This document shows positions 18,355-61,074 of a stretch of 64,000 nucleotides of DNA, piece after piece. Made by a program: the position numbers and the translations under genes. The notes beneath the pieces are model-generated. The model was given only the letters and a program-made list of their open reading frames with translations, ran no database searches and had not been told where the DNA came from. Origin of the DNA: a virus. How positions within the stretch are numbered: the stretch's first letter is position 1; every line of letters starts with the position of its first letter. The stretch is taken from IMG/VR virus record IMGVR_UViG_3300030060_004277, positions 27,600 to 91,599 of that record. One strand, 5' to 3'.

Positions 18355-20029
18355 AGGTAATCACCTCTATGTACCGAGGAAGGGTCCTGTCGATGTCTTG
18401 TCTGTATAGTTGAATCTTAGACGCTAGGTCCACGTTCTGTGTTCCCTCTGGTATGAGGACACTCCTGTCGTCACTCATGAGCAACTCGATGGCAACCATC
18501 TTGGTACATACGTCCTCGATGGCCTGCTCGACGTATCTCTCGCCGTAGATGTACGCGACCTTGATTGCGTTCCACTCGAAGAACGGGTATGAGTTGTTGA
18601 AGTAGACTATTCCCATCTCAGCGTCGAGCCAGAAGTCCCTGAGCCTTCCCTTGTCGCCGCTGGCGCTGCCCCCTTGCAGGTCTATGGCGAATCTATGCTG
18701 AGTGACTGTGGCACTCGCGCTGCTCATTGTAGTAGCGTTGCCACCGTTATAACTCCCAACTTGCTTACAACTGATGAATACAGTATCAGTCCTGCTCTCG
18801 TAGAAAACTACGTCTGCGGCATCAGAGCCGACGAGAAGACCGGATGGCGCGAAGCCCTCTGTGGAATCGACCACTATATCCATCGTACCAGCGGTTATAT
18901 CACCAGTAGACGAGGCTGTGGTCGCTGTGCTGGTGTGAGTTTGGGAGATTTCTATGTTAGTGCTCGGGCTGCCAATCACAGCGATTGAAGAGTCCTCACC
19001 GCCGACGGAGTCCCTCATGCTGGATATCTTCACTATCCCCGAGCCGTAGTCGGCATTGGCACTTGCGAGGAACTCGTTGTGGACCGCCACGTTCGACGTC
19101 GAACCCGGCATGGTGAGTGCTGTTCCACCTAAATCTGCGAACTCGATTGCAGTTGCTGATACCCTGTCCTCCTTGTTGATGAGGTCAGCGAGGCTCTGTG
19201 CATTGCTCATGTTGTCCAAGTCTATTCTGAACTTGGCATTGTCATGAGCAACTGCTCCTCCATCGGGTATTTGCACTGCTTCCAGTGTAGCAAAAACCCC
19301 TGAGCCGTTGGCTAGGAATACCTTATTGGTATTCTGCATGAAACTCCCAACAACGGATGAGTCAACTGAGGTTTTCTTAGCGAATCTGAGGCGAGCCTCA
19401 GCAGCGCCTATCTCCCTGTAGTCGTCGCCCTGCCACAGTTCGACCCTCAGCAGTTGCTGCACGTTGCGGAATAGGAGTGGGGCTGTGCCTACGTAATCCG
19501 TGTAATATCGTCGCCTGTATGGTTTGTAGGTATCGAAGTTGATGTACTCGGCAGAGACCAGATTGGGTCTCCATGAGTTGTGAGTGATGTTGTCTATCTT
19601 GTCCTGCATCCTAGTGATGATTGTATTGACCTTGTCTTTGGTAAGCCCTCGTGACCTACCATTGGTGAACGATGCCTTGTTCTGAACGTATCCATTGTCC
19701 GTGGTCTCGTATAGACCGGGGTTGATAGCGGATGAGAATGCGAGTTTGACACCGTCTGCACTTGTGGTGATTGCAGTGATATCACGGTCAACACCCAAGG
19801 GGTCTGCGTCTGAGTACAGTAGTAGAGTGTCTCCTACTGAGAATCCGATGTTCCTGTAGTCCGCTCCTGTCACGAATACGGCGTTAGCCTCTGCGTTAGC
19901 GGACATCAAGACTGCTTCTTGTGGTCCTAAGTCCAATAGGTCTGCAACTTTCTGCGCTGTGGTATACACTATAGCAGTGGGGTCTAAGGGTCTCGTCTCA
20001 GGTTCACCCGGACTGAATACTTGTGGCAT
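18347..20029 (-). CDS. Putative head-tail connector/adaptor with insertions
   Basis: 560 aa; YTTAQKVADLL, IITRMQDKIDNIT, IKVAYIYG...IEDVCTKMVAIELL resemble adaptor-family segments split by inserts. Confidence 0.6.
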   Translation of the reverse strand: MPQVFSPGEPETRPLDPTAIVYTTAQKVADLLDLGPQEAVLMSANAEANAVFVTGADYRNIGFSVGDTLLLYSDADPLGVDRDITAITTSADGVKLAFSSAINPGLYETTDNGYVQNKASFTNGRSRGLTKDKVNTIITRMQDKIDNITHNSWRPNLVSAEYINFDTYKPYRRRYYTDYVGTAPLLFRNVQQLLRVELWQGDDYREIGAAEARLRFAKKTSVDSSVVGSFMQNTNKVFLANGSGVFATLEAVQIPDGGAVAHDNAKFRIDLDNMSNAQSLADLINKEDRVSATAIEFADLGGTALTMPGSTSNVAVHNEFLASANADYGSGIVKISSMRDSVGGEDSSIAVIGSPSTNIEISQTHTSTATTASSTGDITAGTMDIVVDSTEGFAPSGLLVGSDAADVVFYESRTDTVFISCKQVGSYNGGNATTMSSASATVTQHRFAIDLQGGSASGDKGRLRDFWLDAEMGIVYFNNSYPFFEWNAIKVAYIYGERYVEQAIEDVCTKMVAIELLMSDDRSVLIPEGTQNVDLASKIQLYRQDIDRTLPRYIEVITFE

Positions 20030-20838: not shown

Positions 20839-21252
20839 TCATTCCTCCTGTATTGTCTCCTCGACTGGTTCTTCGACTGCTTCCTCGACCACTGGTTCTT
20901 CAACCACTGGCTCTGCTACGGGTTCAGGAGCAGGCGGGTTAAGGACATTGTCCACGAGACCGAGTAGTCTGGTCTTCGTCTTGTATCCTCCACCCACGCT
21001 GCTTCCACTGTCCTCTAGCCACTTGATGATGTTGGCTCTAGTCCAACCCTCATCAGGGATTCCGTCTTCACCTTTGTCGTGGTGAACACCTTCGTCGCCT
21101 TCAACCAGAAAATGCTGGTCACTAATCTTCCTACGGTTAGAGTCGAGCCAATCTTGACTGACTTCCCTTACCTGCCCACGGATGAAGGCCGGGACTTTGG
21201 GGTCCGGGCTCTTCCTCTCGTAGAAAGGACCTTTGTAGGTTATAGTAGGCAC
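20839..21252 (-). CDS. Protein with HeH/LEM-like motif and acidic PVVEE tail
   Basis: WTRANIIKWLEDSG...KTKTRLLGLV; tail EPVAEPVVEEPVVEEAVEE. Confidence 0.55.
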   Translation of the reverse strand: MPTITYKGPFYERKSPDPKVPAFIRGQVREVSQDWLDSNRRKISDQHFLVEGDEGVHHDKGEDGIPDEGWTRANIIKWLEDSGSSVGGGYKTKTRLLGLVDNVLNPPAPEPVAEPVVEEPVVEEAVEEPVEETIQEE

Positions 21253-21263
21253 GAAGAGTCACC

Positions 21264-21692
21264 TCAGACTACCACTAGCAGTAGTTCTGCTCCAGTCGTG
21301 TCGTTAGTGGTACCATCAGTCGTCGCTTCTATGTCGAAGGTTAGCACGAGGTCGCTGGTTTTTGCCACTGCAAAGTTAGCAGTTGCGTCTGCGTGCTGTC
21401 CTACTACTGTTAGGATTTTGCTGCACTCGCCGCTTAGGGTTAGTGTCTCACCCTCGGCTAGAGCGCTGTTCATCGTAACAGCGAGAAGTCTTGGACTCCT
21501 TCTGTTCACTACCTGTGTGTTTGATGCTGCGAATCCACCAAGGTTACCGGGGTAACCGTCGGTTGATTGTCCGTCGAGCCATAGTGTCTCGCTTTCATCG
21601 CTACCAGCCCATAGACCAAGGTCTAGGTTGACCGTGGTGGTTGCGCTGCCGCTTGTCGTGTATGTTATTCCTCTGTGTGTTGTTGCTGCCAT
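21264..21692 (-). CDS. Putative capsid decoration/minor head protein
   Basis: 142 aa, Thr-rich, immediately after MCP. Confidence 0.5.
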   Translation of the reverse strand: MAATTHRGITYTTSGSATTTVNLDLGLWAGSDESETLWLDGQSTDGYPGNLGGFAASNTQVVNRRSPRLLAVTMNSALAEGETLTLSGECSKILTVVGQHADATANFAVAKTSDLVLTFDIEATTDGTTNDTTGAELLLVVV

Positions 21693-24369: not shown

Positions 24370-27300
24370 TCATACCTCTAAATCGTCGTACTGCTCTTCC
24401 TTCTTCTTCTTTTCTTTAGGTTTCTTGGGGTAGTCTGAAGGTTTCTCTGGGTCTTGCTCAGGCCTCTCTTTCATGTCCCAGTCTGGGACTGCGTGCTCCG
24501 AAGTTAGTGAAGTTGGCCCTCGGGGACTGGCTATATCTGAGCCGACATCAATACCAAGAGCCCTACCACCGCTCATAGGGTAGTGACCGCTACCTGTCAT
24601 TTTCTCGAGTTTCTCTAATGCCTTCTCTATGAGAAGAAGGGCCTTCAGCGTGTCCTTCGGTTTGAGAAGCACATTCTTGTCCTTCTTGGGTTTGAGAAGC
24701 CCACCGCTCTGATGCTCTATTCTCCTAGCACGCTCATCAGTCATGCCCTCGTTTGATTCGTCCTCATCCCAATCAGCCCTATCCAACTCCTCTTTCAGGA
24801 GTTCTTTGAAACCTTGACGCCAATAGGGTTCTAGGCTGTTAGCGAGTCTCAATGAGTAATCTGACTTGGTTATGCTGCCTATCGCTGCGATTGGGTTGAC
24901 GGGTTCCTCATCTACTATCTCGTACTTCACCAAGTCCTCCGGTAGATGGAGAATGAAATGCCCCCTGTCCATCTCCATTGCGAAAGGTATGTGGATTTGC
25001 TCCTGTGCTTTTGCAAGCAGAACCCACTTCGGGTGTCTCTCCTCGCCTTTCATGTAAGTAGACTTGGCATCTCTCAAGAGTAGTTTCTGCCCACCACCAC
25101 CGAGGTCCTTGACTGCTTCCTCGAATCCCACATCGTCCGTGACACGTATGGATTCAGGGCTTGGGACATGCACAGGCTCATGACTGTCGAACTGTCCCCT
25201 GATTAGTTTGACCCTCTCTCTGGTAGTGAGGTCTGTGACGTCCGTGTCATCGTATAGCAGGATGTCATTGATGTGAATATCATCATCCACTATGGTGCAG
25301 TCGATTACGTAATCCCTCTGGCATACCTTCCTGAGCGCTGCTCTCATGTCATCGTCCACTCCGATTTTTTCGCCATCCTCATCGGTGATTTCTATCCTAC
25401 TGCCCTTCTTCTTGACCTTGACCCTCTGACCCTCGTGATACTTCGATACGACCCACTCGCCAGTGAATCCGCGTAGTTCCTCCATGTCATCGATTTCGAA
25501 TATCCTGTGAAGCGGGTCTATCAGTGGCATCTCCTTGGGCAACTCCGCCTTGAGCATCTTACCAATCGCATTGAAGTCGTCTATTGGTGCCATTCCGGTG
25601 TTCGGGTCCACAGCCATCTGGTTGTTTTGCAGACCTGATATCTGGGATAGTCCCGGTTGTGAGTAGAGGTCTTGCGTCCACTCGTCTCCGAATACGTAGT
25701 TCATCCAAGGCATGGAGACCGAGTTCAACAGAGTGTCACTGGGCATGTTGGTGCCAACCATGGGACTTCCCCTCGAATTGTACTCGACACCTATGCTAGG
25801 TGACATCGAGAATCCGAAGTCCATCCTGCCTGAGTTGTATATTGGTGAGATTACATTGCCCTCCATCTCAGGAACTGGTCTTATCGGCACAGACATTCTA
25901 CCGTGGACTGGTTTTGTCACACTACCAGCGCTGGCCTCCTCAAGGGGACCCGATTGCCCCTCATCAAATGTGAAGATGTGACTGGAGAGTGCCTTGTGCC
26001 TCTCCCTCTCCTTGGTCGTCGAGTCGATGTCCTTGTTAGGCGTCGGATGCTCCTGATGGCCGAGACCGTATGCGGTCATGTCACCCATCCTAGCCAATTG
26101 ACGAAGGAAGCCAAGAGAGCGATATGCCGTGTTGCCTGTGTTGAAGGCCTTAGCCTCCCTTAGGTTTCTAACAGGCACATTCTCAAAGCCATCGATGTGC
26201 TCTCTGAGGTTGTCTATGTCCTTGAACTCCGAGAACATGTTGTCCATCCTCGGATGAAGTTCCTCACCCATCGTGGTGACTTGTCCGAAGGTAGCAGCCT
26301 TCGTAGGACCGACTAACGTGGCTAGAGTGTCTTCGACTTGTTTGTTGTGGAACTCGTCATCAGGTAGACCTAGAGCCTGTCTTGCCTCCTCCACTTCCAT
26401 ATCAGGAGTCAGTTCCGTGCCTTTGTCCCTCAAGGCCATAGCGAGTTTCTTGTGAGGGGATGACTGTCCTCTGGATTCCAGTCTCTGTTCTAGGCTTTCC
26501 CTAGTCTCTTCCTTCTCGTGATACCCGTGGGTGCTGAGGTCATGGTCACCATCCACCATCAATCCTCGACTAGCGTCATGAGCGAGCCTCATCGCATTCG
26601 CCATGGCTGTGACCGGGTCACCTGTGTTGAACGCATCAGGGTTCTCCTTGAGCAACATGGGCAGTAGTTTTGTCTTGGCATACTCAGCAACTGCTCTCTT
26701 GTCAGCATCCAACTTCTCGGAGAACTCTCTGCTTAGTCTCTTACCGGATACTGTTGAGTCTGGTTCCAACTGTCCCATTCTGTATTGCTCATCCTGTGCT
26801 GTTAGTTTGTCTAGGTCGCCTCTCAGGATTTGCAGTTCCGCATCCCTTCTACTACTAGGGACTTTTCCGGACTCGATGTCCTCTATCCTCTCCATGATGT
26901 CATTCATCTCTGACAGCATGCCTCTACGATTATCGGTATCTGAGATTACCTTTCTCGCGTCTCCCAGATGCTGTAGGAACTCGGAGTGAAGAGTAGGTCT
27001 CGGTCCCAATTGAGGGTCGTTATAGAGGTCTCCGTAAGTGTGAACGAACTTACTCGATGGATTGAGTGGGTCATTGTACCTACCAAGGGCGAAGGCTAGT
27101 CTATGTGCGGAACCGGACCTATTCATGAGGGAGGCATCGCCCCTAGTCTCCGAGCCTATACCCGCATAGGGATGGAACTGCTGGAAGTCAGCGGCAGTCT
27201 CCCTGTCGAACTTCATGTCTTGGAAGTGAGTGTCAGATGTCGGTAGTTGGTTGTGTACGCTCCCCATCACCGAGGGGAAGAGCGTAGTGAGGTCATCGGT

Positions 27301-50142: not shown

Positions 50143-50949
50143 TCAGAACTCCCCCAGTAACTCATCGAAGTTGAATGCCCTGCCCTGTGCTTCGGGTGGT
50201 GCGTTCCTGTCCACGAAACCAGAGTCTATTCCGTATCTCTCCCTACCTAGCCTTGTCGGTGTCAGTGGTACGTTCTCATACGTGGACGGGTCATGGTAGT
50301 CAACACCTCGTGCGACATTCGAGGGCTGCGGCATCATGACAAGCCTCTCTGGTGGTATCCCCTCATGCATGAGCATCTCAGGCAGGTCCTCCGGTGACTC
50401 ATCCGCTGTCCTCGTCTGCATGTCCATCTGCCTCGCTTCCTCTGGGCTCATGCGCACACCGACGAGACCCTGACCACCTTTGTCAGCACCAGTGGATGCG
50501 TATCTTATGTTGCGTGGGTGCGGCTTCGTGAGGAAGAACCCCTTGCCGCCGCCTCTGGTCATGTCGAATTGCTTGTCCTCTGGACTGAAGAGGCCCTCAT
50601 CCGTATCCCAATACTCGTTGTGGCCACCCAGTTGGCTCTGCGGCACGAGTCCCTGACTCTGAATCGCAGGCATGTCCCCCATCCTGTTGGTTCTGACATA
50701 CGTCATCGGCCCGTATCGACTAGGCGCCTCAGGGAAGAACTGCCCCAACGTGGTCTGCTCTGGTGGCAACTCCGGATACAGGTTGGGTAGATTGGGTGTG
50801 ACTGCCGCCTGCTTCAGAAAGACAAATGCATCGTAGCCCGCTTCGGCATGGGAGGTAGTATCAACAGTAGAACGAACGAATAGTGAGTTCCCGACGACAG
50901 CCACGATGACCCGTATAGGGGTCAAGATTTCTAAGTTTCCTTTGTGCAC
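50143..50949 (-). CDS. Possible ADP-ribosyltransferase-fold protein (start uncertain)
   Basis: YVRT...AIQSQGLVP...FFLT...EMLMHEGIPPERL spacing resembles Tpt1/ART-like families. Confidence 0.45.
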   Translation of the reverse strand: MHKGNLEILTPIRVIVAVVGNSLFVRSTVDTTSHAEAGYDAFVFLKQAAVTPNLPNLYPELPPEQTTLGQFFPEAPSRYGPMTYVRTNRMGDMPAIQSQGLVPQSQLGGHNEYWDTDEGLFSPEDKQFDMTRGGGKGFFLTKPHPRNIRYASTGADKGGQGLVGVRMSPEEARQMDMQTRTADESPEDLPEMLMHEGIPPERLVMMPQPSNVARGVDYHDPSTYENVPLTPTRLGRERYGIDSGFVDRNAPPEAQGRAFNFDELLGEF

Positions 50950-51005
50950 CGGTTTTTTTCTAATTTTTTATTTTTTATTCGAGCGCCGTGTGTGGTCATA
51001 TAAGA

Positions 51006-51405
51006 GCGCCAACGCATGGCGCCAACGCATTCTCCGGCTAAGCCCCCGGCGCCAACGGGGTACTGCGTCATGCTAAGGGGCGGTGGTGGGGGTGGCGCCA
51101 ACGGGCAACTGCGCTCCGCCAACGCAACCGCCAACGCTGGACTCGTGGATAGGTGTCAGCGTCACGCTCTGCGAGCGTCACACTGCCGTGATATGGCGGG
51201 GGCGTCGTCGTCGGTGGTGGTGGGGGGCAAGCGTACACGTCGGCACTATGCCCACAACCGCCACCACCACACCAGCGTGACGCTACCCACAAGCGCCAGC
51301 ATGACGCGCCACTTCACCCGTACACCCTAACGTGGACTCCCCACCCATACGGTTGGTATACTGTGTGTGCCTGCTTCTAACTTGAGCCATCTGTGTGCGC
51401 CAACG
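51006..51405 (+). repeat. Cluster of [G/C]CGCCAACG 9-mers in GC-rich non-coding switch region
   Basis: Copies at 51006, 51019, 51049, 51095, 51116, 51128, 51397; inverted copies at 52267 (1 mismatch) and 52303. Confidence 0.75.
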
Positions 51406-51430
51406 GGACGCACCTGCATGATTTGGAGCC

Positions 51431-51450
51431 TTGACTATAAAAGGGAATAG
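51431..51450 (+). promoter_or_regulatory. Early 20-bp element copy 1 TTGACTATAAAAGGGAATAG
   Basis: Exact repeat; TATAAAA core ~40 bp before ATG 51476. Confidence 0.8.
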
Positions 51451-51475
51451 TAAGATACGGGGTGGAGGAAGCGAA

Positions 51476-52189
51476 ATGACTGACACATCAGACGTACACC
51501 CAGCCATAAGAACGAACGACGCGCTAAAGGCGCTTGCGGAGGCAGTAGCCTCGGGGAAGGGGGTGAGCATACCCCTGCACAAGGAGCAGGGCTTCATCAT
51601 CCTGACACCCGACAACTCCCCCGTCAAGTACACCAAGGCGCAAGCGAAGGCCCTACTCACGGCCTGCCACGCTCAGGCCAAAGGCGCGACCAGATACGCC
51701 GATGACCTGCCAACGAACCCGAAGTCCGCGCTCGGACTGACCCACAACGGCTCGCCCCTATGGGCCAAGGCTCTGAACGCAAGCACCAGCAGATACACCG
51801 AGGCAGGCAAAGCCATCAGGTCCGCCCGTGACCAAGCCAAGATTCAGGCAACCGGCGGATGGATTCACGTGCCATCCGGGACCATCGGCCCAAGCAAGAA
51901 GAAGACCGCGACCGCGGCCATCAGGGCCGACCACGGAGGCGACTGGTGGAAGGACGAGGCCCGAGCCAACGAACTGCGCAAGGAGTACCGCGCCGACTGC
52001 ATCATGGTCAAGGACCAGCAGGCAACACCGGCCCCCGTGGTCGCTGAGGCCCAGACCGCGACCGTGACCAAGGCGGTCCTCGTGGACAGGTGCAAGCAAC
52101 TGAGCCTAACCGCGACCGGCACCAAAGCCGAACTTCAGGCCCGCATCGACGCGGTGCCCCTAGCCGGACAACTCGGCTGGCACTCCTGA
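51476..52189 (+). CDS. First early gene; Ala/Lys-rich protein with C-terminal SAP motif
   Basis: GGAGG RBS; TKAVLVDRCKQLSLTATGTKAELQARI; high GC3. Confidence 0.75.
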   Translation: MTDTSDVHPAIRTNDALKALAEAVASGKGVSIPLHKEQGFIILTPDNSPVKYTKAQAKALLTACHAQAKGATRYADDLPTNPKSALGLTHNGSPLWAKALNASTSRYTEAGKAIRSARDQAKIQATGGWIHVPSGTIGPSKKKTATAAIRADHGGDWWKDEARANELRKEYRADCIMVKDQQATPAPVVAEAQTATVTKAVLVDRCKQLSLTATGTKAELQARIDAVPLAGQLGWHS

Positions 52190-52288
52190 GCGGGCAACCC
52201 CGCGACGGACTCACGCAACCCCCCTCGGGCCTCCGGGTCCGGGGGGTGGCCCCCACCCCTGCGCCGTGTTGGCGCGGGGGCTTTTTTT
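52190..52288 (+). terminator. Triple hairpin ending in intrinsic-terminator-like stem and T7 tract
   Basis: GCGGG-CAAC-CCCGC; 11-bp stem with c(UCCG)g loop 52221-52246; CCCCTGCGCC-GTGTT-GGCGCGGGGG then TTTTTTT. Confidence 0.7.
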
Positions 52289-52748
52289 ATCGCGCGCTCT
52301 CGCGTTGGCGCGGGCCGTTGTCGCCCTGCGGGACGTCGCTCGTATCACGATTCGTGACACTCGCTCCAACCATACGGGTGGTAGTGCGCAGGCTATCGAA
52401 AAAAAATGTAGTACTGCGCCCCAGCGCTGGCCATACTCAGGTGCATCGCTTATAGTACGCGCCGGTGGCGGTGGTGTGGGTGTGGTGTGCCCCCGTGTTG
52501 TCTTGCTGGTTCTCCCCTCCCTATGCATGTCTATCTGTGGATGAGTGAAACGTACATAGAAGGGGGTATGTGTCCTATCATTCCTTGTATCTGTATATAC
52601 ATATCAATAGATATATACGTAGTAAGGGATAATAAGAAACAACACGGATGCGCATTTGTACGGACGAATCGTTGCACACATTGGAAACACTTGCACTGCT
52701 CGCCTGTGTCCACAGGATTATACACACCGAGCCCCGGCGGTGTCGGCT

Positions 52749-52768
52749 TCGACTATAAAAGGGAATAG
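52749..52768 (+). promoter_or_regulatory. Early element copy 2 TCGACTATAAAAGGGAATAG
   Basis: 1 mismatch; ATG at 52783. Confidence 0.8.
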
Positions 52769-52782
52769 TAATTCACCGAAAG

Positions 52783-52941
52783 ATGACTGAACAAACAGAA
52801 CAGTATGAAGAAGCACGAACGGCAACCCTTGTGGCTTGTATGCTACAAGGTGAATGGGTTGGGGACATGTGGATATGGACCGACAACGATGGCAACATAT
52901 GGGCAGACGACGAGATAGTATCGTGGGCGGTGGTCGAATGA
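52783..52941 (+). CDS. 52-aa acidic Trp-rich protein (not in ORF track)
   Basis: MTEQTEQYEEARTATLVACMLQGEWVGDMWIWTDNDGNIWADDEIVSWAVVE; ATGA overlap to next gene. Confidence 0.65.
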   Translation: MTEQTEQYEEARTATLVACMLQGEWVGDMWIWTDNDGNIWADDEIVSWAVVE

Positions 52942-53213
52942 GCGCACTGCCGACATGGTATCAGATATTCAACGTGGCCCGCCTTGCGAGTCCGTACCAG
53001 CCTGCGCTCAGGATGATGCAACAGGTAGAGAACGCGGGGCATGGCAATAGTGTGGAGAGGCACCTGCTTGACTTGGTGGTCAACTACAACAGGAGCACTG
53101 AGGAGTTGAAGGCGAGGGTCATGGACATGCTGTACGGAGACTACTACAAGATGTACTCCTATCAGGGATGGGACACGCTGAGCACCAGCGACATACAGGA
53201 GGAAGAGGAATGA
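52938..53213 (+). CDS. Hypothetical early protein
   Basis: Starts MSALPTWY; ATGA coupling both sides. Confidence 0.65.
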   Translation: MSALPTWYQIFNVARLASPYQPALRMMQQVENAGHGNSVERHLLDLVVNYNRSTEELKARVMDMLYGDYYKMYSYQGWDTLSTSDIQEEEE

Positions 53214-54007
53214 GCAGCCCGCTTACTACGAAGGTGGTGTACCAATTCACGACCACGACGAAGAAGTGGCTGGATGACATGGGTCAGGAGCACGTGAGCG
53301 AGCGGTCGAGCACGGTCATCATGACTGACGAGCAGGTGGCGGCGAGGGAGTTGGCCGACATGCTGTGCGACCACGTCTTCAACACGGTGTCACGGCAGGG
53401 CTACGCTGGTCTGCCACCGATGGACCACACGCCTGTGCTGCGTGGCGAGGACGAGTTTGCCAGCGACTTCGACGAGAGGCTGTACGCATGGAGCATGGAT
53501 GGCAGTGGCTATTTCGAGGACTACAAGAACGCGCTGTACTGGGAGTGCCTGATGTTCACGGCCACTCCCTCGTACAAGCCAAAGGGCATCGGTGATGTCG
53601 CCCTTGCCTCTCGCAAGCACAGGCTCGACCCCATACACAATCCGCTGGACGATTTGGTAGATGTGGTGAGGGACATACCCACGTGGAAGCACTGCATTCC
53701 CCTGCCCAGCATGAACGACGTGCTGGCGATAGCAGAGAGGATGGTGATGGGTACGCTGAGCCCGCCCGAACTGCTGATTGACCAGAGCGGGAACGACTTC
53801 GATGGGAGTGTATCACGCTGCCTCTTCAAGAGGATAGAGGTCAGGAACGTGACCACTCGGGACTACGAGACTGAGCAGTCGATAAAGGAGTACGAGGCAT
53901 ACCGCAATAGCGACCAGTACAGGCAGGACATGCAGGACGAGAGGGATGCTGCGCTGACGGAGCGAGAGATGGGCAACCCGAATACCTACGAGAGGGATGT
54001 GATTTGA
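53210..54007 (+). CDS. Hypothetical early protein
   Basis: Starts MSSPLTT; acidic; ends 2 bp before element copy 3. Confidence 0.7.
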   Translation: MSSPLTTKVVYQFTTTTKKWLDDMGQEHVSERSSTVIMTDEQVAARELADMLCDHVFNTVSRQGYAGLPPMDHTPVLRGEDEFASDFDERLYAWSMDGSGYFEDYKNALYWECLMFTATPSYKPKGIGDVALASRKHRLDPIHNPLDDLVDVVRDIPTWKHCIPLPSMNDVLAIAERMVMGTLSPPELLIDQSGNDFDGSVSRCLFKRIEVRNVTTRDYETEQSIKEYEAYRNSDQYRQDMQDERDAALTEREMGNPNTYERDVI

Positions 54008-54009
54008 TG

Positions 54010-54029
54010 GTGACTATAAAAGGGAATAG
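54010..54029 (+). promoter_or_regulatory. Early element copy 3 GTGACTATAAAAGGGAATAG
   Basis: 1 mismatch; ATG at 54041. Confidence 0.8.
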
Positions 54030-54040
54030 TAGAACAGGAG

Positions 54041-54430
54041 ATGATTGAGATGAATTATGAACAAGCAAGAGAGATAATGAAGACAGCAAGGAACCCTGTG
54101 AAGGGCAAGCCGATTGGGAACAACACACGGTTGTATGACAACGATGGGTACTACACCATCAGGTTGCACAACCATGTCATCATGGAGATATACCCTGATG
54201 GCTTCATCCCATTGGATGCGGGGTGGCGGACAGTCACCACGAAAACAAGACTGAATGAGCACATGCCCATTGGTTATCTACACCAAAAGAAATGGCATTG
54301 GTACTTTACCATCGGTGATACAACCTACGATTGGAAAGATGTGTACTTCGTCAGCACGCACCCTGAACATCAGGATGACCCAGTGGTGACCGAGGGAGAC
54401 TACCGTGCATCCAAGGAGATGGTACAATGA
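54041..54430 (+). CDS. Conserved viral hypothetical protein (GW.T.TTK.RLN motif)
   Basis: NNTRL...IRLHNHVI...AGWRTVTTKTRLN. Confidence 0.7.
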   Translation: MIEMNYEQAREIMKTARNPVKGKPIGNNTRLYDNDGYYTIRLHNHVIMEIYPDGFIPLDAGWRTVTTKTRLNEHMPIGYLHQKKWHWYFTIGDTTYDWKDVYFVSTHPEHQDDPVVTEGDYRASKEMVQ

Positions 54431-56766
54431 ACGCACAAGAGATGCACATGATTGTGAAGAAGTTCGTATCCTACGGTGCGCCTGATGCTTACGACGGGCA
54501 AGGTCCGAACAAGTTTGATTGGGACTTCTTGGAGAGGATGTCGCACAGGGATGAACTGAATGCAGAGCAGATACACAGGTGTGCTGAGAGACTGAGAAAG
54601 TACAGGAACACACAGATGCCGAGGGCATTCAGCGAGTGTGGACTGACCATGCCTGACGATTGGGATGCTATGGTGGAGGAGTTGTCGGTAGTGTCGGCGG
54701 AGACGGCTGACCTCATCACCTTCAAGGAGATTGAGACATCCTTCTGGTCCAACAAATACAACAAGAACTTCACCAACAACAGGCTCGCAGTACAATGGTC
54801 TGGGCACCGGAGTGAATTGTACCTTGACCTTAAGAACAAAGTGTCGTTCCCGGAGTTTCAATATCAGCCTGACTATGGTATGCACTTCAAGAGAGACAAG
54901 GATGTCATACTCAAGGGAGCGGGTATCATGGCACAGCATGGACTCAAGGTTGCTGACTTGGTTCTGTATGCCAATGGGTTGGACGATACCCCTGCTCGCA
55001 AGAAGGAAGAGTATGCAGTACGCATCGAGGGAGATGCCGTAGCCATCATGGTACCCTACGATGAGGTGAGGACGAGGGAGATAGTCAAGGCCACCAACAA
55101 CAGGAAGTGGTTGAAGGGTACGAAGGAGTGGGCTGTGCCCATGGTTGAGACCATCCACCTGATAAACAGGCTTGGGCCTGAGCATCCACTCACCGTCATC
55201 ATGGATGCCATGCCTGAGTTGAAGGAAGCCAACAAGGTGAGGGCGGAGCGCATCAGCATCAGCGGTGCCTCATCCCTGAGCGATGAAGACATCGTGGCTG
55301 ACATGAAGGAGAGACTAGACCGAGAGTTCCCCGAGGGGCATGAGTTGTATCCCTTTCAGTATGCAGGTGTGCGCTTCGCTGAGTTGGCTGATGGCAAGGC
55401 AATCATCGGAGATGACATGGGGATAGGCAAGACCATCCAAGCCATCGCCTACTGTGTCTTGCATCAGGAGCACTGGCCTGTGCTGGTGGTCTGTCCTGCC
55501 AACGTCAAGTACAATTGGCTCAAGGAGTTGAAGGCGTGGTTGCCCCAGCACCCTAGTGATGTGGTTGTCAACGGCAAGGATGAGGTACGTGATGCTGACT
55601 TCACCGTCATCAACTACGACCTGATGAGCAAGAAGCAAGGCGAACTCATGGCCGTGGGGTACAAGACCATCATCATGGATGAGTGCCACTACCTGAAGAA
55701 CCAGAAGGCCAAGAGGACTCAAGCCACAGTCGCATTGGCTCAACAGTGTGAGAGCATCCTCGCTCTCAGTGGTACTGCAATCACAAACAGACCAGTGGAG
55801 TTGTTCAACACACTGAACATGGTCAGGCCAGCGGAGTACTCTAACTTCTTCCAATACGCTATGCAGTACTGCGGTGCGCATCAGAACTCATGGGGGCACT
55901 GGGACTTCACCGGTGCTACCAACATCGATGAGTTGCATTCCAAACTGAGGGATGTGATGATTCGCAGGCTGAAGAAGGAGGTACTGGAGGAACTACCGGA
56001 CAAGATACGACAGTTCGTACCAGTCACACCTACCAGCGCAGAGATGACTGACTACAAGAAGTACGCAGCCAAGTGGCTGAGGGACTACGAACAGCACAAG
56101 GTGAACAACGACATGCCAGCGGGGTTCGTTCTCAACATGCTGACCAAACTCAGGCACAAGTGTGGTAGGCTCAAGGTGAGCGCTGCGCTTGACTGGGTCG
56201 CTGAGTACAGGGACATCACTGACAACAAGCCTGTCATCATCTTCACTCACCACAAGGATGTGAGTGCATCCCTCATCGAGGGACTGAATGATGACAAGAG
56301 ATTCGCTGGCACGAGATGGGGTAGAATAACCGGTGATGTGGCATCGCAGAAGAGGCAAGAGATGGTGGACTTGTTCCAATCAGGTGCGCTTGATGGTCTG
56401 GTGTGTAGCACACAGGCAGCGAAGGAAGGACTGACACTCACAGCAGCGGACACTGTGGTGTTCATCGAGCGTGAGTGGGTGCCCGGATGGGAGGAGCAAG
56501 CCGAGGATAGGGTGAACAGGATTGGACAGGACAGTGACACGGTGTGGGCTACCTACCTGTCTGTCGCTGGTACTATCGATGAGAGATTCGATAGGGTCGT
56601 CGAGCAGAAGAGAGAGGTAGTGTCCGCTGTGCTTGACGGTGGTGATATGGAGATGAGGCAGGGCCTTGCAGTGGCACTGCTTGAGGCTATGGTGGAAGCA
56701 GGTGAGATGCCTGCGGACATGCTTCAGAACATAGGTGTGGCCAAGTCACACTTCGAGGAGGAGTGA
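54427..56766 (+). CDS. SNF2-family (SMARCAL1/HARP-like) helicase
   Basis: GDDMGIGKT, VVCPA, DECH, LSGT, RRLKKEVLEELP, QAEDRVNRIGQ. Confidence 0.92.
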   Translation: MNAQEMHMIVKKFVSYGAPDAYDGQGPNKFDWDFLERMSHRDELNAEQIHRCAERLRKYRNTQMPRAFSECGLTMPDDWDAMVEELSVVSAETADLITFKEIETSFWSNKYNKNFTNNRLAVQWSGHRSELYLDLKNKVSFPEFQYQPDYGMHFKRDKDVILKGAGIMAQHGLKVADLVLYANGLDDTPARKKEEYAVRIEGDAVAIMVPYDEVRTREIVKATNNRKWLKGTKEWAVPMVETIHLINRLGPEHPLTVIMDAMPELKEANKVRAERISISGASSLSDEDIVADMKERLDREFPEGHELYPFQYAGVRFAELADGKAIIGDDMGIGKTIQAIAYCVLHQEHWPVLVVCPANVKYNWLKELKAWLPQHPSDVVVNGKDEVRDADFTVINYDLMSKKQGELMAVGYKTIIMDECHYLKNQKAKRTQATVALAQQCESILALSGTAITNRPVELFNTLNMVRPAEYSNFFQYAMQYCGAHQNSWGHWDFTGATNIDELHSKLRDVMIRRLKKEVLEELPDKIRQFVPVTPTSAEMTDYKKYAAKWLRDYEQHKVNNDMPAGFVLNMLTKLRHKCGRLKVSAALDWVAEYRDITDNKPVIIFTHHKDVSASLIEGLNDDKRFAGTRWGRITGDVASQKRQEMVDLFQSGALDGLVCSTQAAKEGLTLTAADTVVFIEREWVPGWEEQAEDRVNRIGQDSDTVWATYLSVAGTIDERFDRVVEQKREVVSAVLDGGDMEMRQGLAVALLEAMVEAGEMPADMLQNIGVAKSHFEEE

Positions 56767-56773
56767 TGAAGAC

Positions 56774-56793
56774 TTGACTATAAAAGGGAATAG
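56774..56793 (+). promoter_or_regulatory. Early element copy 4
   Basis: Exact 20-mer. Confidence 0.8.
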
Positions 56794-56824
56794 AAGGAAA
56801 GGAGATGAAAAGGAGAGAGACAAC

Positions 56825-57763
56825 ATGACAATGAACAAACAAGAAAGAAAAGCATATGGAAAGAAGAAGGACGAGGTGAACAGACAGCGCTGGTTCGAGA
56901 ACCTAGCGCAGGGTATCAGGGACAGCAACCTGCCTTGGCAGAAGCCATGGGTCGGTGGTGGCGGTGGGATGCCCATCAACCTGAAGAGCAAGAAGGCATA
57001 CCGGGGTGGCAACATCATTACCCTCTGGGTCTTCGGCATGGGTGAGGGATGGACTGACCTACGGTTCGGCACACGCAAGCAGTTGATTGATGCTGGCTTG
57101 TCTGTCAAGGGATTGAAGAACGGCAGTGGCATACCCATCAAGTACTTCAAGACTGGAACCTACGAGAAGGAGAACAAGAAGGGCGAGGTCGAGGTACGCA
57201 CATCCTTCCTGACAAGATGGTACGAGGTATGGTGCGTCGAGCAGTGCGAGAACTACGAGGCACCAGTCGTCGAGCCACACAAGGTAGTGCCTGAGTCTGT
57301 GATGATGGAGCAGTTCTATCAGTACATAGACTCTCAGTCTAGCCTTGACTTGAAGCGCAAGGGCAACCGAGCCTACTACAACAGCGATGAGGATGACGTG
57401 GTGCTACCACCACACGAAGCATTCACCGACACGCTGGGTGAAGTGATGACTGCCATGCACGAAGCAGTCCACTCCACTGGGTACAAGACGAGGATGAACA
57501 GGGCATTGAAGAACAAGTTCGGCTCACCTGAGTATGCGTTCGAGGAACTGATTGCGGAGATGGGTGCACTGATTGTGACACTGAGCCTAGGTGGTGAGTT
57601 CAAGCCGGGTGCAGTGATGGAGGAGAATGCCAACAACATAGCCTACCTACAATCATGGCTCAAGGCTTGCAACGAACAGGACAGGGCATTGGACAAGGCG
57701 TTCAGCGATGCGCAGAAGGCAGCGGACTACGTACTGGATGCACTGCGAGGTGATGAGGAATGA
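56825..57763 (+). CDS. ardC: ArdC-like ssDNA-binding/zincin antirestriction protein
   Basis: LPWQKPW, YRGGN, AYYN...VVLPP..F, HEAVHSTG, YAFEELIAEMGA. Confidence 0.85.
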   Translation: MTMNKQERKAYGKKKDEVNRQRWFENLAQGIRDSNLPWQKPWVGGGGGMPINLKSKKAYRGGNIITLWVFGMGEGWTDLRFGTRKQLIDAGLSVKGLKNGSGIPIKYFKTGTYEKENKKGEVEVRTSFLTRWYEVWCVEQCENYEAPVVEPHKVVPESVMMEQFYQYIDSQSSLDLKRKGNRAYYNSDEDDVVLPPHEAFTDTLGEVMTAMHEAVHSTGYKTRMNRALKNKFGSPEYAFEELIAEMGALIVTLSLGGEFKPGAVMEENANNIAYLQSWLKACNEQDRALDKAFSDAQKAADYVLDALRGDEE

Positions 57764-58008
57764 GTGACTACCGACACATGAGTATTGATGATGGCTACAT
57801 ATCCGATGCGGTCATATGGGAGATGAGGGACAAACTAGAACCACCCATGAAGGGGTACGTCATGTTCTCATCCAGTGGATGGGAAGAGAACGTGGAACAC
57901 CTAGTGGAGTACATGGGTATAGCAGAGGAGGACATCTACCTTGTTCGCTATGGTGGCGAGGAGTATGGGTATGTCTCCTGTTGGATACCCGGAGGTGATA
58001 AGGAATGA
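57760..58008 (+). CDS. Small acidic hypothetical protein
   Basis: 82 aa, ATGA coupled. Confidence 0.65.
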   Translation: MSDYRHMSIDDGYISDAVIWEMRDKLEPPMKGYVMFSSSGWEENVEHLVEYMGIAEEDIYLVRYGGEEYGYVSCWIPGGDKE

Positions 58009-58400
58009 TTGACACAGAGAAATACAAAGGACACACACCTGCGCCGTGGAAGGCGCTGCTTAACCATCCTCAAGTGGAAGGGTCATGTGTGGTGAGTGAT
58101 GAAGATGAAAGTAATTTTGGAGACACTTGGTATGAGCGAATACTTGGGCCATTATGGGTTGGTGAATTGACTGACGACATGCCTGATACTAAACTCATAG
58201 CAGACGCACCACTTCTCCTAGCAGAAGTCGAGCGGTTGATGAACTGCTTGAGGTATGTCGGTGTGAGTATGTACTTGGATGCGAACAACCATCGAACATA
58301 CGACTACGGGGACTTGTTGGACTACATCATGGAGATTACTGGAGAGCCTAATGACCTTTCAGGTCAGATGGGTGCGATGATACGGGATGTGATTGAATGA
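58005..58400 (+). CDS. MIDT.KY.GHTP family protein, paralogue A
   Basis: MIDTEKYKGHTPAPW...LIADAPLLLAEVERL. Confidence 0.75.
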   Translation: MIDTEKYKGHTPAPWKALLNHPQVEGSCVVSDEDESNFGDTWYERILGPLWVGELTDDMPDTKLIADAPLLLAEVERLMNCLRYVGVSMYLDANNHRTYDYGDLLDYIMEITGEPNDLSGQMGAMIRDVIE

Positions 58401-58810
58401 TTGACACAGACAAGTACGAAGGACACACACCTGCACCGTGGAATGCTGATGACGATGGAGGGGGTAAGTATCTCCACATAGATGCCTATGGTGAAGAGGG
58501 CGATGTGTGCGTAGCAAGAATGGTAAATGGGAATTGGATAGATACACAACTCATCGCAGACGCACCACTTCTCCTAGCAGAACTCAAGCGGTTAGAAAAG
58601 AGACTTGATTTTGCACAGGAAGTTATGGATGACCAAACAGCAGTGGAGTTTCATGATTTGATACTTGAATCGGAAGGTGAGGAAGACGAGAGATGGGAAG
58701 ACGAGAGATGTCCGGAATGTCAAGAAGAACACCACGACACTTGCCCTTTGGTAGAGGGTTGTTCATGTTGTGAATGGACAATGAAACAAATGCTGGAGGA
58801 AAAGGAATGA
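58397..58810 (+). CDS. MIDT.KY.GHTP family protein, paralogue B
   Basis: MIDTDKYEGHTPAPW...LIADAPLLLAELKRL; Cys/His-rich C-terminus. Confidence 0.75.
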   Translation: MIDTDKYEGHTPAPWNADDDGGGKYLHIDAYGEEGDVCVARMVNGNWIDTQLIADAPLLLAELKRLEKRLDFAQEVMDDQTAVEFHDLILESEGEEDERWEDERCPECQEEHHDTCPLVEGCSCCEWTMKQMLEEKE

Positions 58811-59307
58811 ACATCTTCGTACTAGATAGGAATCCAATCAGAGCATCTGAGATGATGTGCGACAAGCACATCCCAAAGATGATTGTGGAGTCAGCGCAGA
58901 TGATGGCATCAGCCCTGCGTAGGCACGGTGCTGTCGACAGTCAGATGCCGTTGACGAAGGCCGGACGGCCATACTTGGGGGGTTACAAATATCACCCATG
59001 CACTGTGTGGGCGGGTGACTCATGGCACAACTTCGATTGGTTGGCCAACCATGCCATCGGACTGCTTGGTGAATACTACATGAGATTCGGAAAGGAGCAT
59101 GCTTGCGGTAATGCGATTGGTCAGATGAATGGTATGAGTTGGCGACTGCCCAACGGCAGGCTGACACCGTTCGCTCAAGCCATGCCTGATGAGTTCAAGC
59201 AAGAGGATGCGGTGCAGGCGTACCGTGCTTACTACCACAGCAAGACTTTTGCCAAATGGGAGAAGGGAACAGATGCACCACACTGGTGGATGGGGGTGAC
59301 AGCATGA
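58807..59307 (+). CDS. Pyrimidine-dimer glycosylase (DenV-like) family protein
   Basis: MNIFVLD.NP...CDKHIPKMIVESAQM, HPCTVW, EY..RFGK.H, TPFAQAMP, AYRAYY. Confidence 0.75.
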   Translation: MNIFVLDRNPIRASEMMCDKHIPKMIVESAQMMASALRRHGAVDSQMPLTKAGRPYLGGYKYHPCTVWAGDSWHNFDWLANHAIGLLGEYYMRFGKEHACGNAIGQMNGMSWRLPNGRLTPFAQAMPDEFKQEDAVQAYRAYYHSKTFAKWEKGTDAPHWWMGVTA

Positions 59308-59723
59308 GTTATGATATCATACAACACGCTGACGGTGATGACTACGTTGACTTGAACTACACGTTCAATCGCTCTGACTTGTGGTATGACGTCTTCGGTG
59401 AGGAAGGACTCTCTACCCTAAGCGGCATGACGGGTGCAGAGGCTGAGGCTGCAATCGTGCAGTTCCTCATTGATGTCACCAAGAAGTACATGGATGGAGA
59501 TTACAGCACTGTGCTTGAAGAGGTGAGCAAGTACAGGTCGCACCCTGAGAACATCAAGAACATTAATGGTATCCTGCTCGGCCCGAAGACAATCAAGGCT
59601 GGCATCAGGGAGTACGACTCACGCAACGGATGGGGCAGTGCCTTCTGTCAACTCAACTTGATGCTCACGATGCTCGTGCACTCGAGAGAGAAACCTGACG
59701 GTACATGGGGGATATACAAATGA
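59304..59723 (+). CDS. Hypothetical protein (MSYDI...NYT.N...NGWGS)
   Basis: ATGA coupled; 139 aa. Confidence 0.65.
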   Translation: MSYDIIQHADGDDYVDLNYTFNRSDLWYDVFGEEGLSTLSGMTGAEAEAAIVQFLIDVTKKYMDGDYSTVLEEVSKYRSHPENIKNINGILLGPKTIKAGIREYDSRNGWGSAFCQLNLMLTMLVHSREKPDGTWGIYK

Positions 59724-59872
59724 GATTGAACTATGATAAGATGAAGATATACACGCCTGATAGGAATGGAGAGATGCGCGAGGTTCCCATTGAAGTCGTT
59801 CAATGGATAAACAGATGCAGGTACATAATCGCCAAGGAAGAGCACATGAAGAACAAGGAGCAGGTATCATGA
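59720..59872 (+). CDS. 50-aa hypothetical (not in ORF track)
   Basis: MRLNYDKMKIYTPDRNGEMREVPIEVVQWINRCRYIIAKEEHMKNKEQVS; ATGA coupled, followed by 26-aa ORF 59869-59949. Confidence 0.5.
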   Translation: MRLNYDKMKIYTPDRNGEMREVPIEVVQWINRCRYIIAKEEHMKNKEQVS

Positions 59873-60008
59873 AGCCCGGAGACAAACTGAAACTACGCAT
59901 CGAGGAAGAGGAATACATCTACGAGGAGTGGGAACTAGACGACGAGTAGGCGCACGTCATCGAAAGATGATAGTGACAATTGACGTGATAATATGAGTAG
60001 CGTAAGCG

Positions 60009-60048
60009 TTGACTATAAAAAGAGAGACTTGACTATAAAAGGGAATAC
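60009..60048 (+). promoter_or_regulatory. Tandem early elements (partial TTGACTATAAAAAGAGAGAC plus copy 5 TTGACTATAAAAGGGAATAC)
   Basis: Direct reading; ATG at 60051. Confidence 0.8.
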
Positions 60049-60050
60049 AG

Positions 60051-60500
60051 ATGACTAAGATAAAAACAGAACCAATCAACGTATCAAATACAAGGCTTTC
60101 CCTCAAAGCAGGGAGGGGGCATCGTAAGTTCGATGCTAAACAAGCGAAGAGGCATGACTTCGGAGAAGCGCATTGCGTGATTTGTGATGAGGTATTTACC
60201 AAGTATCACCCACAACTAACTGTGTGTTCCGAAGAGTGCAAGAAAGAGAAGAACAAGCGTAGGCACCGCAAGTACTACGAGAAGAATCGTGAGAAGGCAA
60301 AAGCGTATGGCCGCAAGTACTACGAGAAGAATCGTGAGAAGGCAAAAGCGTATGCCCGCAAGCACTACGAGAAGAATAGCGAGAAGATATTGGCAAGACA
60401 ACGCAAGCACCACGAAGAGAATCGTGAGGAGATAAGAGCGAGGGAACGCGAGCGTTACCACGCTAAGAAAAAAGAGAGACTTGACTATAAAAGGGAATAG
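60051..60500 (+). CDS. Zn-finger plus RKYYEKNREK tandem-repeat protein
   Basis: CVIC...CSEEC; four 45-bp units from 60267; stop lies inside element copy 6. Confidence 0.7.
   Translation: MTKIKTEPINVSNTRLSLKAGRGHRKFDAKQAKRHDFGEAHCVICDEVFTKYHPQLTVCSEECKKEKNKRRHRKYYEKNREKAKAYGRKYYEKNREKAKAYARKHYEKNSEKILARQRKHHEENREEIRARERERYHAKKKERLDYKRE
60481..60500 (+). promoter_or_regulatory. Early element copy 6
   Basis: Exact 20-mer. Confidence 0.8.
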
Positions 60501-60521
60501 AAGGAAAGAGGATAGATTGAG

Positions 60522-61046
60522 ATGTTGCTAGATAAGATACAGACATTGGTGAACGACGGTGCGGAAGCACTTGGGCAGAAGATACCCATACCACCTATCA
60601 CAGGTGATACCATAGCCAGAAGGAGAAGCAGTTTGAGCGAACTTGAGATGACAAACCGTGATTCCATACAACACCACACAGGGTGGGCTGAGGCGTATGG
60701 GTTGTGTAGCAGTGTGGGAGTCGTTGACTCCCTGACCTACTACGAGTTGTGCAAGGAACTGGCAGGTGATTACGACCTACTGCCATCCGTCGTACTAGCG
60801 ATGAAGATGAAGGTGATGACAGAACCAGCGAGGATGTATGTGCTGAATGGTGGGCCACAACCATTGTTGCACGTCGGTAAGAGTACGCCGACACTACTGA
60901 GAGTGGCACATGAGGGTGCGCAGTCAGGACTGTGGGACATGGAAGACGTGTTCACGCTACCTGCACCCATGACTCCTGTGTCGCCAGACATACTGGAGCA
61001 CTTCGACGTGGATGGGTTCGATGGCTCGGAGGTGTACTTGGCGTGA
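60522..61046 (+). CDS. Hypothetical early protein
   Basis: 174 aa, bounded by elements 6 and 7. Confidence 0.7.
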   Translation: MLLDKIQTLVNDGAEALGQKIPIPPITGDTIARRRSSLSELEMTNRDSIQHHTGWAEAYGLCSSVGVVDSLTYYELCKELAGDYDLLPSVVLAMKMKVMTEPARMYVLNGGPQPLLHVGKSTPTLLRVAHEGAQSGLWDMEDVFTLPAPMTPVSPDILEHFDVDGFDGSEVYLA

Positions 61047-61054
61047 TTGGAGTC

Positions 61055-61074
61055 TTGACTATAAAAGGGAATAG
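61055..61074 (+). promoter_or_regulatory. Early element copy 7
   Basis: Exact 20-mer; GGAG RBS and ATG 61105. Confidence 0.8.

Follow-up and report, generated by a model that had tools for sequence, protein, structure and literature searches.

A 20-bp element, TTGACTATAAAAGGGAATAG, is repeated seven times on one strand of the 64,000-nucleotide stretch of viral DNA analysed here (the window), namely bases 27600-91599 of the 91.6-kb IMG/VR contig G000 (rated 85% complete), which its gene content places in group A of the magroviruses, tailed viruses assigned to archaea of the ocean. By taking into account the sequence of the element, its strand, its placement and its conservation among related viruses, each copy is probably the core promoter of one transcription unit in the arm of the genome that carries accessory and replication genes, with recombination at these boxes probably leading to the turnover of gene cassettes from strain to strain. 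Magroviruses are among the most abundant archaeal viruses of the surface ocean and, to our knowledge, both they and their hosts are uncultured.

Copies and placement of the element

At up to three mismatches, exactly seven matches to the element are found in the window (51431, 52749, 54010, 56774, 60029, 60481 and 61055), each on the + strand and each with zero or one mismatch, and none is found in 100 dinucleotide shuffles; the 13-mer core CTATAAAAGGGAA identifies the identical seven sites, with 0.5 expected. Scanning both strands of the 91.6-kb contig reveals no eighth copy at up to two mismatches, and at up to five it adds only a partial copy at 60009 and one chance-level match on the - strand. 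No other 10-mer family is repeated as often in the G000 contig, and a comparable repeated motif was not found in the late (- strand) arm. An earlier note on this DNA, made from the letters alone, had listed the same seven copies and the partial one, and had seen none in the late arm, all of which is borne out. The features are as follows.

51431..51450, + strand: copy 1 (exact), closes the divergent intergenic region; the SAP-domain gene (51476-52189) begins 25 nt on
52749..52768, + strand: copy 2 (TCGAC variant), after a 560-bp non-coding stretch; ATG 14 nt on, without a Shine-Dalgarno sequence (SD)
54010..54029, + strand: copy 3 (GTGAC variant), 2 nt past the stop codon of a 279-aa gene; heads a 129-aa gene and the SNF2 helicase gene
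56774..56793, + strand: copy 4 (exact), 7 nt past the SNF2 stop codon; heads the gene for the ArdC-N/zincin protein and then small genes over ~3 kb
60009..60028, + strand: partial copy (TTGACTATAAAA + AGAGAGAC), in tandem with copy 5
60017..60047, + strand: left unit of a perfect 31-bp direct repeat on either side of the 149-aa cassette; comprises 12 nt (AAAAAGAGAGAC) and positions 1-19 of the element
60029..60048, + strand: copy 5 (last base C), left border of the 149-aa cassette; ATG just 2 nt on
60051..60500, + strand: 149-aa cassette gene, present in G000 only, whose stop codon is the TAG of copy 6
60469..60499, + strand: right unit of the same 31-bp direct repeat
60481..60500, + strand: copy 6 (exact), heads the 174-aa gene
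60522..61046, + strand: 174-aa cassette gene, between copies 6 and 7
61055..61074, + strand: copy 7 (exact), 8 nt past the stop codon of the 174-aa gene; heads a 170-aa gene, a 553-aa gene and later genes to the contig end

The element consists of TTGAC at the position of the transcription factor B recognition element (BRE), followed by the TATA box TATAAAAG and by the 7 bp GGAATAG. The TATA box is kept in all seven copies and has the A/T-rich character and the length of ~8 bp found in archaeal core promoters. All copies are intergenic and have the same orientation as the downstream gene (7/7 in G000, 7/7 in the related contigs G001 and G002 taken together, 24/24 in the more distant relatives G006 and G007). 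From the end of copies 1-7 to the next start codon there are 25, 14, 11, 31, 2, 21 and 30 nt, respectively, in agreement with the range of 2-31 bp given initially, and the remark that copies often abut the previous stop codon also holds, with stop codons 2, 7 and 8 nt upstream of three copies and one open reading frame (ORF), 60051-60500, that closes inside copy 6. The element itself carries stop codons in two frames and occupies nearly the whole intergenic spacer. A search of ~185,000 cellular genomes with the exact 18-mer returned seven scattered single matches and none in Poseidoniales; therefore, the box is not a host repeat.

Virus identity and genome layout

The late arm of G000 encodes terminase, portal and S78 prohead protease on the - strand (~12-51 kb of the window). 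The + strand arm, an accessory and replication block that is presumably expressed early, encodes the SAP-domain protein, the SNF2 helicase and the ArdC-N/zincin protein, leaves the contig end and continues at the contig start; this part and the related contigs G001 and G002 carry the genes for a family B DNA polymerase (PolB), an RFC-like clamp loader, a PD-(D/E)XK nuclease, ERCC4, an exonuclease and a thermosome subunit. The genome thus combines a caudoviral head module, an archaeal-type replication block, SNF2 and thermosome, which is the gene combination that defines magroviruses, the SNF2 helicase and the thermosome subunit being the marker pair of group A (Philosof et al., PMC5434244). 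The same authors argue for Marine Group II archaea as the hosts of magroviruses; by taking into account this argument and the gene set, an archaeal host (Marine Group II/Poseidoniales) is accepted here for G000. The SNF2 region gave no DNA match in the GenBank phage collection, TerL gave only distant matches among GenBank phages (HGTV-1 among them, at 22%), and the thermosome query gave no match in cellular genomes.

Conservation of the element among close relatives

A 17-mer scan of IMG/VR identified two contigs with several copies of the element, G001 (81 kb) and G002 (27 kb), whose late proteins are 85-98% identical to those of G000. The G000-type box is present three times in the former and four times in the latter, within the portion of the arm that is missing from G000. 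The DNA of these two contigs is 74-83% identical, and according to blastn the box itself is the sole early-arm DNA that G000 has in common with them. A scan of metagenomes yielded a further 35 contigs, ~25 of which belong to this virus group; these were chosen by an exact 18-mer match, and hence for box content, and are short-read assemblies. Over 25 distinct G000-type sites, positions 2-20 each carry ~2 bits of information, and the positions on either side carry 1.1 bits or less. Second copies on the metagenome contigs, which were not selected for, differ at just one to three positions (1, 13/14 and 20) with flanks that are 72-77% identical. The copies stay identical under purifying selection, being invariant where their flanks are only 72-83% identical, and exchange among copies would also help to keep them alike within each lineage.

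Single-copy 17-mer matches in L022, L024-L030, L032 and L033 were considered as further carriers of the box and rejected, being consistent with chance. Three of these viral contigs, from three samples (L025, L029 and L030), have an identical 20-mer ending in C with identical flanks (ggtggt...aagctatg), one copy each. No protein similarity to G000 was seen in the stretches fetched, and the match may be due to chance or to an unrelated element.

Lineage-specific versions of the box

The 20-mer of G000 is present in none of the 14 relatives that were found through the SNF2 protein. Each of them has its own near-identical repeat, on the gene strand only, and all these repeats have a TA[T/C][A/T]TAAA core in common. 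Examples are the following.

L011: TTGAC-TATATAAA-CTGGAATAG
L015, L021 and L013: CTTCAC-TACTTAAA-GCAGCATCA
L018: AATTCA-TACTTAAA-GGAGCAAAG
L016: GAACAG-TATTTAAA-CCAACAAAG
L020: TTGGAAG-TATATAAC-CAACC
L010 and L017: AATTGAAGAG-TAT[A/T]TAAA-CT

In the two most complete relatives, G006 (107 kb, 100% complete) and G007 (105 kb, 97% complete), 13 and 11 copies, respectively, are found on one strand only and confined to a block of ~22-23 kb. The positions are kept even where the sequence is not: several relatives have a copy ~3 kb upstream of SNF2 and another directly before the SNF2 unit, as in G000. Thus, across group A magroviruses the sequence of the box has been replaced lineage by lineage at conserved positions, an observation that goes beyond the earlier note, which had asked for a scan of the full genome and its relatives; the outcome was no further G000 copy and, in 14 of 14 SNF2 relatives, a repeat of their own around a common TATA core. 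In G002, the last box heads the RFC gene and is followed by ~15 kb of replication genes, running past PolB up to the thermosome, with no internal box; therefore, the boxes partition the accessory part of the arm.

The element as a probable core promoter

From these features we infer promoter activity of the element. The suggestion that the TATAAAA core corresponds to an archaeal TATA box gains support from the TATA-like core common to the repeats of all 14 relatives. In the proposed mechanism, the host TBP would bind the TATAAAA(G) of the element, the host TFB would contact its flanks, i.e. TTGAC at the BRE position and GGAATAG directly downstream, and the host RNA polymerase would start ~12-17 nt past the element. 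This start is predicted from the placement of archaeal promoter elements, with TATA centred ~27 nt and BRE ~33 nt before the start site (PMC5316973), and from the repeats of halovirus HF2, in which TATA begins at -26 (PMC8707807). With these distances the 20 bp would span about -35 to -16, that is, an ordinary archaeal core promoter and nothing larger, which weakens the previous argument that 20-bp identity exceeds what TBP and TFB need.

In about a third of the units, those with spacers of 13-14 nt and no SD, the predicted start would be the ATG itself, yielding leaderless transcripts; in units with spacers of 25-31 nt it would fall just ahead of the SD. The ATG lies 13-14 nt past the box at 7 of the 25 distinct G000-type sites, and at sites with longer spacers the SD is at or beyond the predicted start. 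The ATG 14 nt past copy 2 is at the distance expected of a leaderless mRNA. The spacer between the box and the RFC gene is 13-14 nt in G001, G002, L060 and L079, with a sequence that is not conserved and contains no SD; a fixed spacer of this kind is what a leaderless mRNA would require. The units are probably also read through into each other, because nothing terminator-like fits between a stop codon and the next element.

A bacterial host or a polymerase of the virus's own would provide a different explanation for the same letters: the element would be a -10-type or a T7-like promoter (GACTATAAAAGGGA compared with T7 GACTCACTATAGGGAGA), with transcription starting at or near GGG. Such a start would put every SD-like GGAG in the 5' untranslated region at ideal spacing, TTGACT and TATAAA look like the -35 and -10 boxes, respectively, of a sigma-70 promoter, and identity over 20 bases is typical of the promoters of single-subunit phage RNA polymerases. 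However, the -35-like and -10-like boxes are adjacent rather than 17 bp apart, there is no conserved -10 at the proper distance, and TACTTAAA and TATTTAAA of the relatives fit a TATA box and not TATAAT. The fixed 13-14 nt spacer of the RFC gene, which is without SD, also speaks against it, as do the archaeal-type replication proteins and the assignment of the lineage to Marine Group II archaea in the literature. A search for the single-subunit RNA polymerase family (PF00940) gave no match in five genomes, which is weak evidence since control genomes also gave none. On balance, a promoter of either type is very improbable.

Some details fit less well with promoters of the archaeal type and weigh against the proposed reading. 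Many short-spacer sites have a GGAG at 8-10 nt from the ATG, which an mRNA starting at the archaeal distance would not include; either these sequences function in read-through transcripts or the actual start is perhaps more distant from the gene than assumed here. The (C)TTGAC at the BRE position is not A-rich, although the A-rich consensus is that of model archaea and may not be that of the host; in some relatives this position is occupied by GAAGAG, GGAAG or GAACAG. Copy 5 is only 2 nt from its ATG, too near to provide a TATA box for that gene.

Host factors or a viral regulator

Viral TFB and TBP were not found in the five genomes searched, which is consistent with the use of host factors. 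Pfam and PHROGs searches on the small early ORFs identified no DNA-binding regulator, the only hints being weak matches to PC4 (E = 0.006) and to the Elf1 zinc-ribbon (E = 0.03). As for the earlier proposal of a dedicated early promoter or activator site, its promoter component agrees with the features that were tested (core, strand, placement, spacing and conservation), and no viral activator, TFB, TBP or RNA polymerase was found to support the dedicated component.

Nevertheless, a viral protein particular to each lineage might bind the element and co-evolve with it, whether as an activator, as a repressor that silences the arm or as an alternative initiation factor. A TATA core alone would not explain all 20 fixed positions, each lineage has its own fixed flanks around the common core, the 7-8 bp downstream of TATA are invariant, and the conserved stretch has abrupt limits on both sides, a pattern known from protein-binding sites. 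Archaeal repressors often bind directly downstream of TATA. Furthermore, the arm opens with the gene for a protein with a SAP (DNA-binding) domain, and most early ORFs have no recognizable domain, so that one of them could hide such a factor. On the other hand, searches of the early ORFs and of five genomes revealed no domain of a transcription factor (TFB, TBP, HTH, RHH or other), and an ordinary core promoter (about -35 to -16) would accommodate all 20 bp. The type of element also does not track SNF2 kinship, since L011 has nearly the same box as G000 at 50% SNF2 identity and L008, at 82%, has a different downstream half. In addition, the similarly extended repeats of HF2 act as promoters on a reporter plasmid in host cells without infection (PMC8707807). 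By weighing these points, dependence on a lineage-specific viral factor is rather unlikely, and a core promoter read by host factors is preferred.

Cassette turnover at the boxes

The region at 60-61 kb exists in three haplotypes. In G000 the order is box, 149-aa gene, box, 174-aa gene and box; L058, L082 and L072 are without 60048-60468, i.e. the 149-aa cassette; L067 and L077 are without 60048-61049, i.e. both the 149-aa and the 174-aa cassettes, so that copy 5 is joined to the sequence downstream of copy 7. All five junctions are inside the box, and one box is left behind. The tandem of the partial and full copies (60009-60048) is shared by each of the five other strains with sequence at the site; therefore, it is older than the difference in the 149-aa cassette. 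Elsewhere in the arm, L068 has the SAP gene, a box, 1.3 kb of unrelated DNA, a box and the ArdC gene where G000 has 4.0 kb (copies 2-4); the replaced block includes copy 3, the 129-aa gene and SNF2, and the two sequences are unrelated from the 3' edge of copy 2 and differ at the 5' edge of copy 4. The homology of L084 to G000 starts exactly at the 5' edge of copy 3, and L085 departs from G000 at the 5' edge of copy 4; it carries an additional 0.8 kb, and the gene that follows its box is not the one of G000.

Strains thus differ by whole cassettes at the elements, and we infer recombination as the mechanism: the 20-31 bp of identity would make the copies substrates for homologous recombination, and strains would lose, gain or swap promoter-plus-gene cassettes at these sites. 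This population-level evidence for cassette turnover at the boxes is new with respect to the earlier note.

The weight to be given to the boxes in this process is limited by other observations. Indels that involve no element are about equally common in the same strains, as in the following cases.

G000 59310-59870: changed in L067 and L072
G001 77090-77555: absent in G002 and L076
G001 77090-77254: absent in L073
G002 20956-21362: absent in L060 and L083
G002 25215-25518: absent in L062

The sole long and unbiased comparison, that of G001 and G002, shows no indel at a box. Since the box fills most of the intergenic spacer, any intergenic breakpoint there appears to be bounded by it. Finally, the metagenome contigs were selected for the box and derive from short reads, the assembly of which can mis-join repeats of 20-31 bp; several contigs stop at or near a box, with L057, L065, L076, L081 and L051 ending 0-27 nt from one. 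Assemblers evidently break at the repeat, which may explain why the early arms of magroviruses are often fragmented. Some events at least are probably real, since the same junction is found in contigs with the prefixes CETF, CEON, Ga0098038 and Ga0115000, apparently separate assemblies, since L068 is collinear with G000, and since the junction between SNF2 and the extra gene in L085 involves no repeat.

The element is, therefore, one route of gene turnover and not the only one, given that element-free indels are about as frequent. The earlier idea that it is a recombination joint, with breakpoints between strains falling at its copies, stands insofar as five contigs lack cassettes, their junctions falling inside it, and three switch content at its edges, and has to be restricted in that indels away from it are as common. 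A further apparent breakpoint, downstream of copy 7 in L054 and L072, was rejected because the gene there is a diverged orthologue (32-34% amino-acid identity). Homologues of the 149-aa protein were found in 20 viral contigs (at most 60% identity, including a giant-virus metagenome-assembled genome bin), none of them flanked by TATA repeats; therefore, there is no evidence that this gene travels with the boxes. The protein itself contains CxxC pairs (two) and repeats of the RKYYEKNREK type (four), and its matches to NinG and to treble-clef proteins are weak.

The coincidence of cassette borders with the element raises the question of whether it is mainly a recombination signal, such as an attC-like site for a dedicated recombinase, or a signal for RNA processing or translation within long read-through transcripts, rather than a promoter. 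The stop codons that it carries in two frames, the ORF that it closes and the intergenic spacers that it nearly fills would be accounted for in this way. However, none of the proteins scanned was recognized as an integrase or recombinase, and indels occur away from the elements too. With respect to a signal at the RNA level, the element contains no inverted repeat, and 70-nt folds around six copies are no stabler than those of shuffled sequences (z from -1.9 to +1.0); the only pairing in them is 4-5 bp of CTAT/ATAG, and a role through RNA structure was rejected. The universal TATA core and the fixed distance to the start codon would be left unexplained in either case. A primarily recombinational or RNA function is highly improbable.

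A bolder proposal would unite the themes of this and the previous section. The sequences that flank TATA might be a lineage-specific 'promoter code' read by a co-evolving early protein that escapes recognition, and the boxes, together with viral recombination enzymes, might form an integron-like system for the capture and expression of promoter-tagged foreign cassettes. This idea is speculative and we consider it unlikely; if true, no earlier system of this kind in archaeal viruses would have had evidence from natural populations.

Other features of the window

The SAP gene (51476-52189) is located between two GC-rich non-coding stretches, 50950-51430 and 52190-52750. The first contains an A/T run (50950-50985) and at least seven direct copies of (G)CGCCAACG at 51007-51405; inverted CGTTGGCGC is found at ~52268 and ~52303, in the second. 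GCCAACG repeats upstream of the first box are also present in L053, L069 and L070, and the region resembles an iteron-type origin of replication or else a regulator array. Rfam gave a single match on 50900-52800, far below threshold. Another non-coding stretch, of ~1 kb, is found inside the replication arm (G002 18456-19679 and G001 74513-75297; L049 and L047), with a length of 620-1200 bp depending on the strain, and may be analogous to 52190-52750 of the window.

Directly behind copy 4, the gene at 56825-57763 encodes an ArdC-N domain and a zincin-like metallopeptidase (MPTase-PolyVal) of anti-restriction type; the protein is 57-68% identical in L015, L021 and L068. Among the small genes that follow, two adjacent paralogues (58005-58400 and 58397-58810) start with MIDT(E/D)KY.GHTPAPW, and the ATGATTGACACA start is found five to seven times in L010, L014 and L018. 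The 137-aa protein encoded by 58397-58810 is 95% identical in L019, where SNF2 is 47% identical, and 88% in L008, where SNF2 is 82% identical; this points to recent exchange of a small gene between distant magroviruses, and the arm is strongly mosaic in general.

On the - strand, a single ORF of 5633 aa spans 1-11938 of the window and reaches ~5 kb before it, downstream of the tail genes. Its counterpart in G001 has 6143 aa and is 72-86% identical. A run of small + strand ORFs in 1-11800 was considered and rejected, the region being part of this large ORF as cut by the window edge.

Implications

The boxes provide a ready map of transcription units, with 10-13 predicted promoters in an accessory and replication block of ~22 kb that would be followed by a box-free RFC-to-thermosome operon of ~15 kb. 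As sequence tags, they find related strains in metagenomes in spite of the divergence of the remaining DNA, and they represent a natural experiment on the gain and loss of accessory genes in archaeal viruses. Practical gains include better calls of gene starts, by considering leaderless starts 13-14 nt past a box, and a defined DNA probe with which to pull out the host TBP and TFB or a viral regulator.

Comparison with known systems

In the magrovirus papers searched, neither 'promoter' nor 'TATA' is mentioned. Elements closest in kind are the intergenic repeats of halovirus HF2 and the haloferacalesviruses (class I, 58 bp; class II, 29 bp), which Russ, Pfeiffer & Dyall-Smith 2021 (PMC8707807) describe as proven promoters with BRE, TATA, proximal promoter element (PPE) and initiator (INR), mapped start sites and positions conserved throughout the genus. 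The two systems have in common several near-identical, co-oriented intergenic copies, the succession of a BRE-position sequence, TATA and conserved downstream sequence, and the maintenance of positions among relatives. They differ in that the promoter role of the magrovirus box is deduced from its sequence, in that the box has only 20 bp and is confined to one arm, and in that each lineage has a different sequence for it, in contrast to the genus-wide conservation of the HF2 repeats. Strain-level gain and loss of cassettes at the repeats, seen for the magrovirus box, is not met in the portion of the HF2 account considered.

Next in similarity is the motif of HGTV-1 (Halogranum tailed virus; Sencilo et al. 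2013, as cited in PMC3950731), in which a TATA sequence and an inverted repeat precede most ORFs of the left arm and for which a role in transcription and genome shuffling has been proposed by analogy. On this description, both are archaeal tailed viruses with a TATA-like motif before many ORFs of one arm; the magrovirus box has no inverted repeat and its strain junctions are observed, in contrast to shuffling suggested by analogy.

The mechanistic model is provided by the PeSLs (promoter early stem-loops) of T4-type phages, repeated promoter motifs that flank accessory ORFans in a hyperplastic region (Arbiol et al. 2010; Comeau et al. 2014; PMC2839356; PMC4122927). These are sigma-70-type promoters of ~100 bp with a GC stem-loop that acts as terminator or attenuator, for which mini-circle intermediates were shown (PMC2839356; PMC4122927). 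The analogy with the promoter-bounded modules of T4-like phages, which the earlier note had drawn, is strengthened by the indels between close relatives that are bounded by the motif and by the single motif left after cassette loss, for the magrovirus as seen in short-read assemblies. Unlike a PeSL, the magrovirus box has 20 bp and an archaeal TATA type, with no stem-loop or terminator in the folds of six copies, and its adjacent TTGAC and TATAAA, without a -10 at 17 bp, do not make a sigma-70-like promoter.

Many near-identical copies per genome also characterize the mimivirus AAAATTGA, the poxvirus early promoters and those of the T7 group, in which they mark a temporal class of genes and are read by transcription machinery that the virus encodes; here, in contrast, viral TFB and TBP were not found in the five genomes searched. 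Overall, the promoter-bounded cassette logic of T4-type phages seems to be at work in magroviruses, and the box, which is well supported as a sequence feature, is a further example of a type of element known from salt-lake archaeal viruses and T4-like phages.

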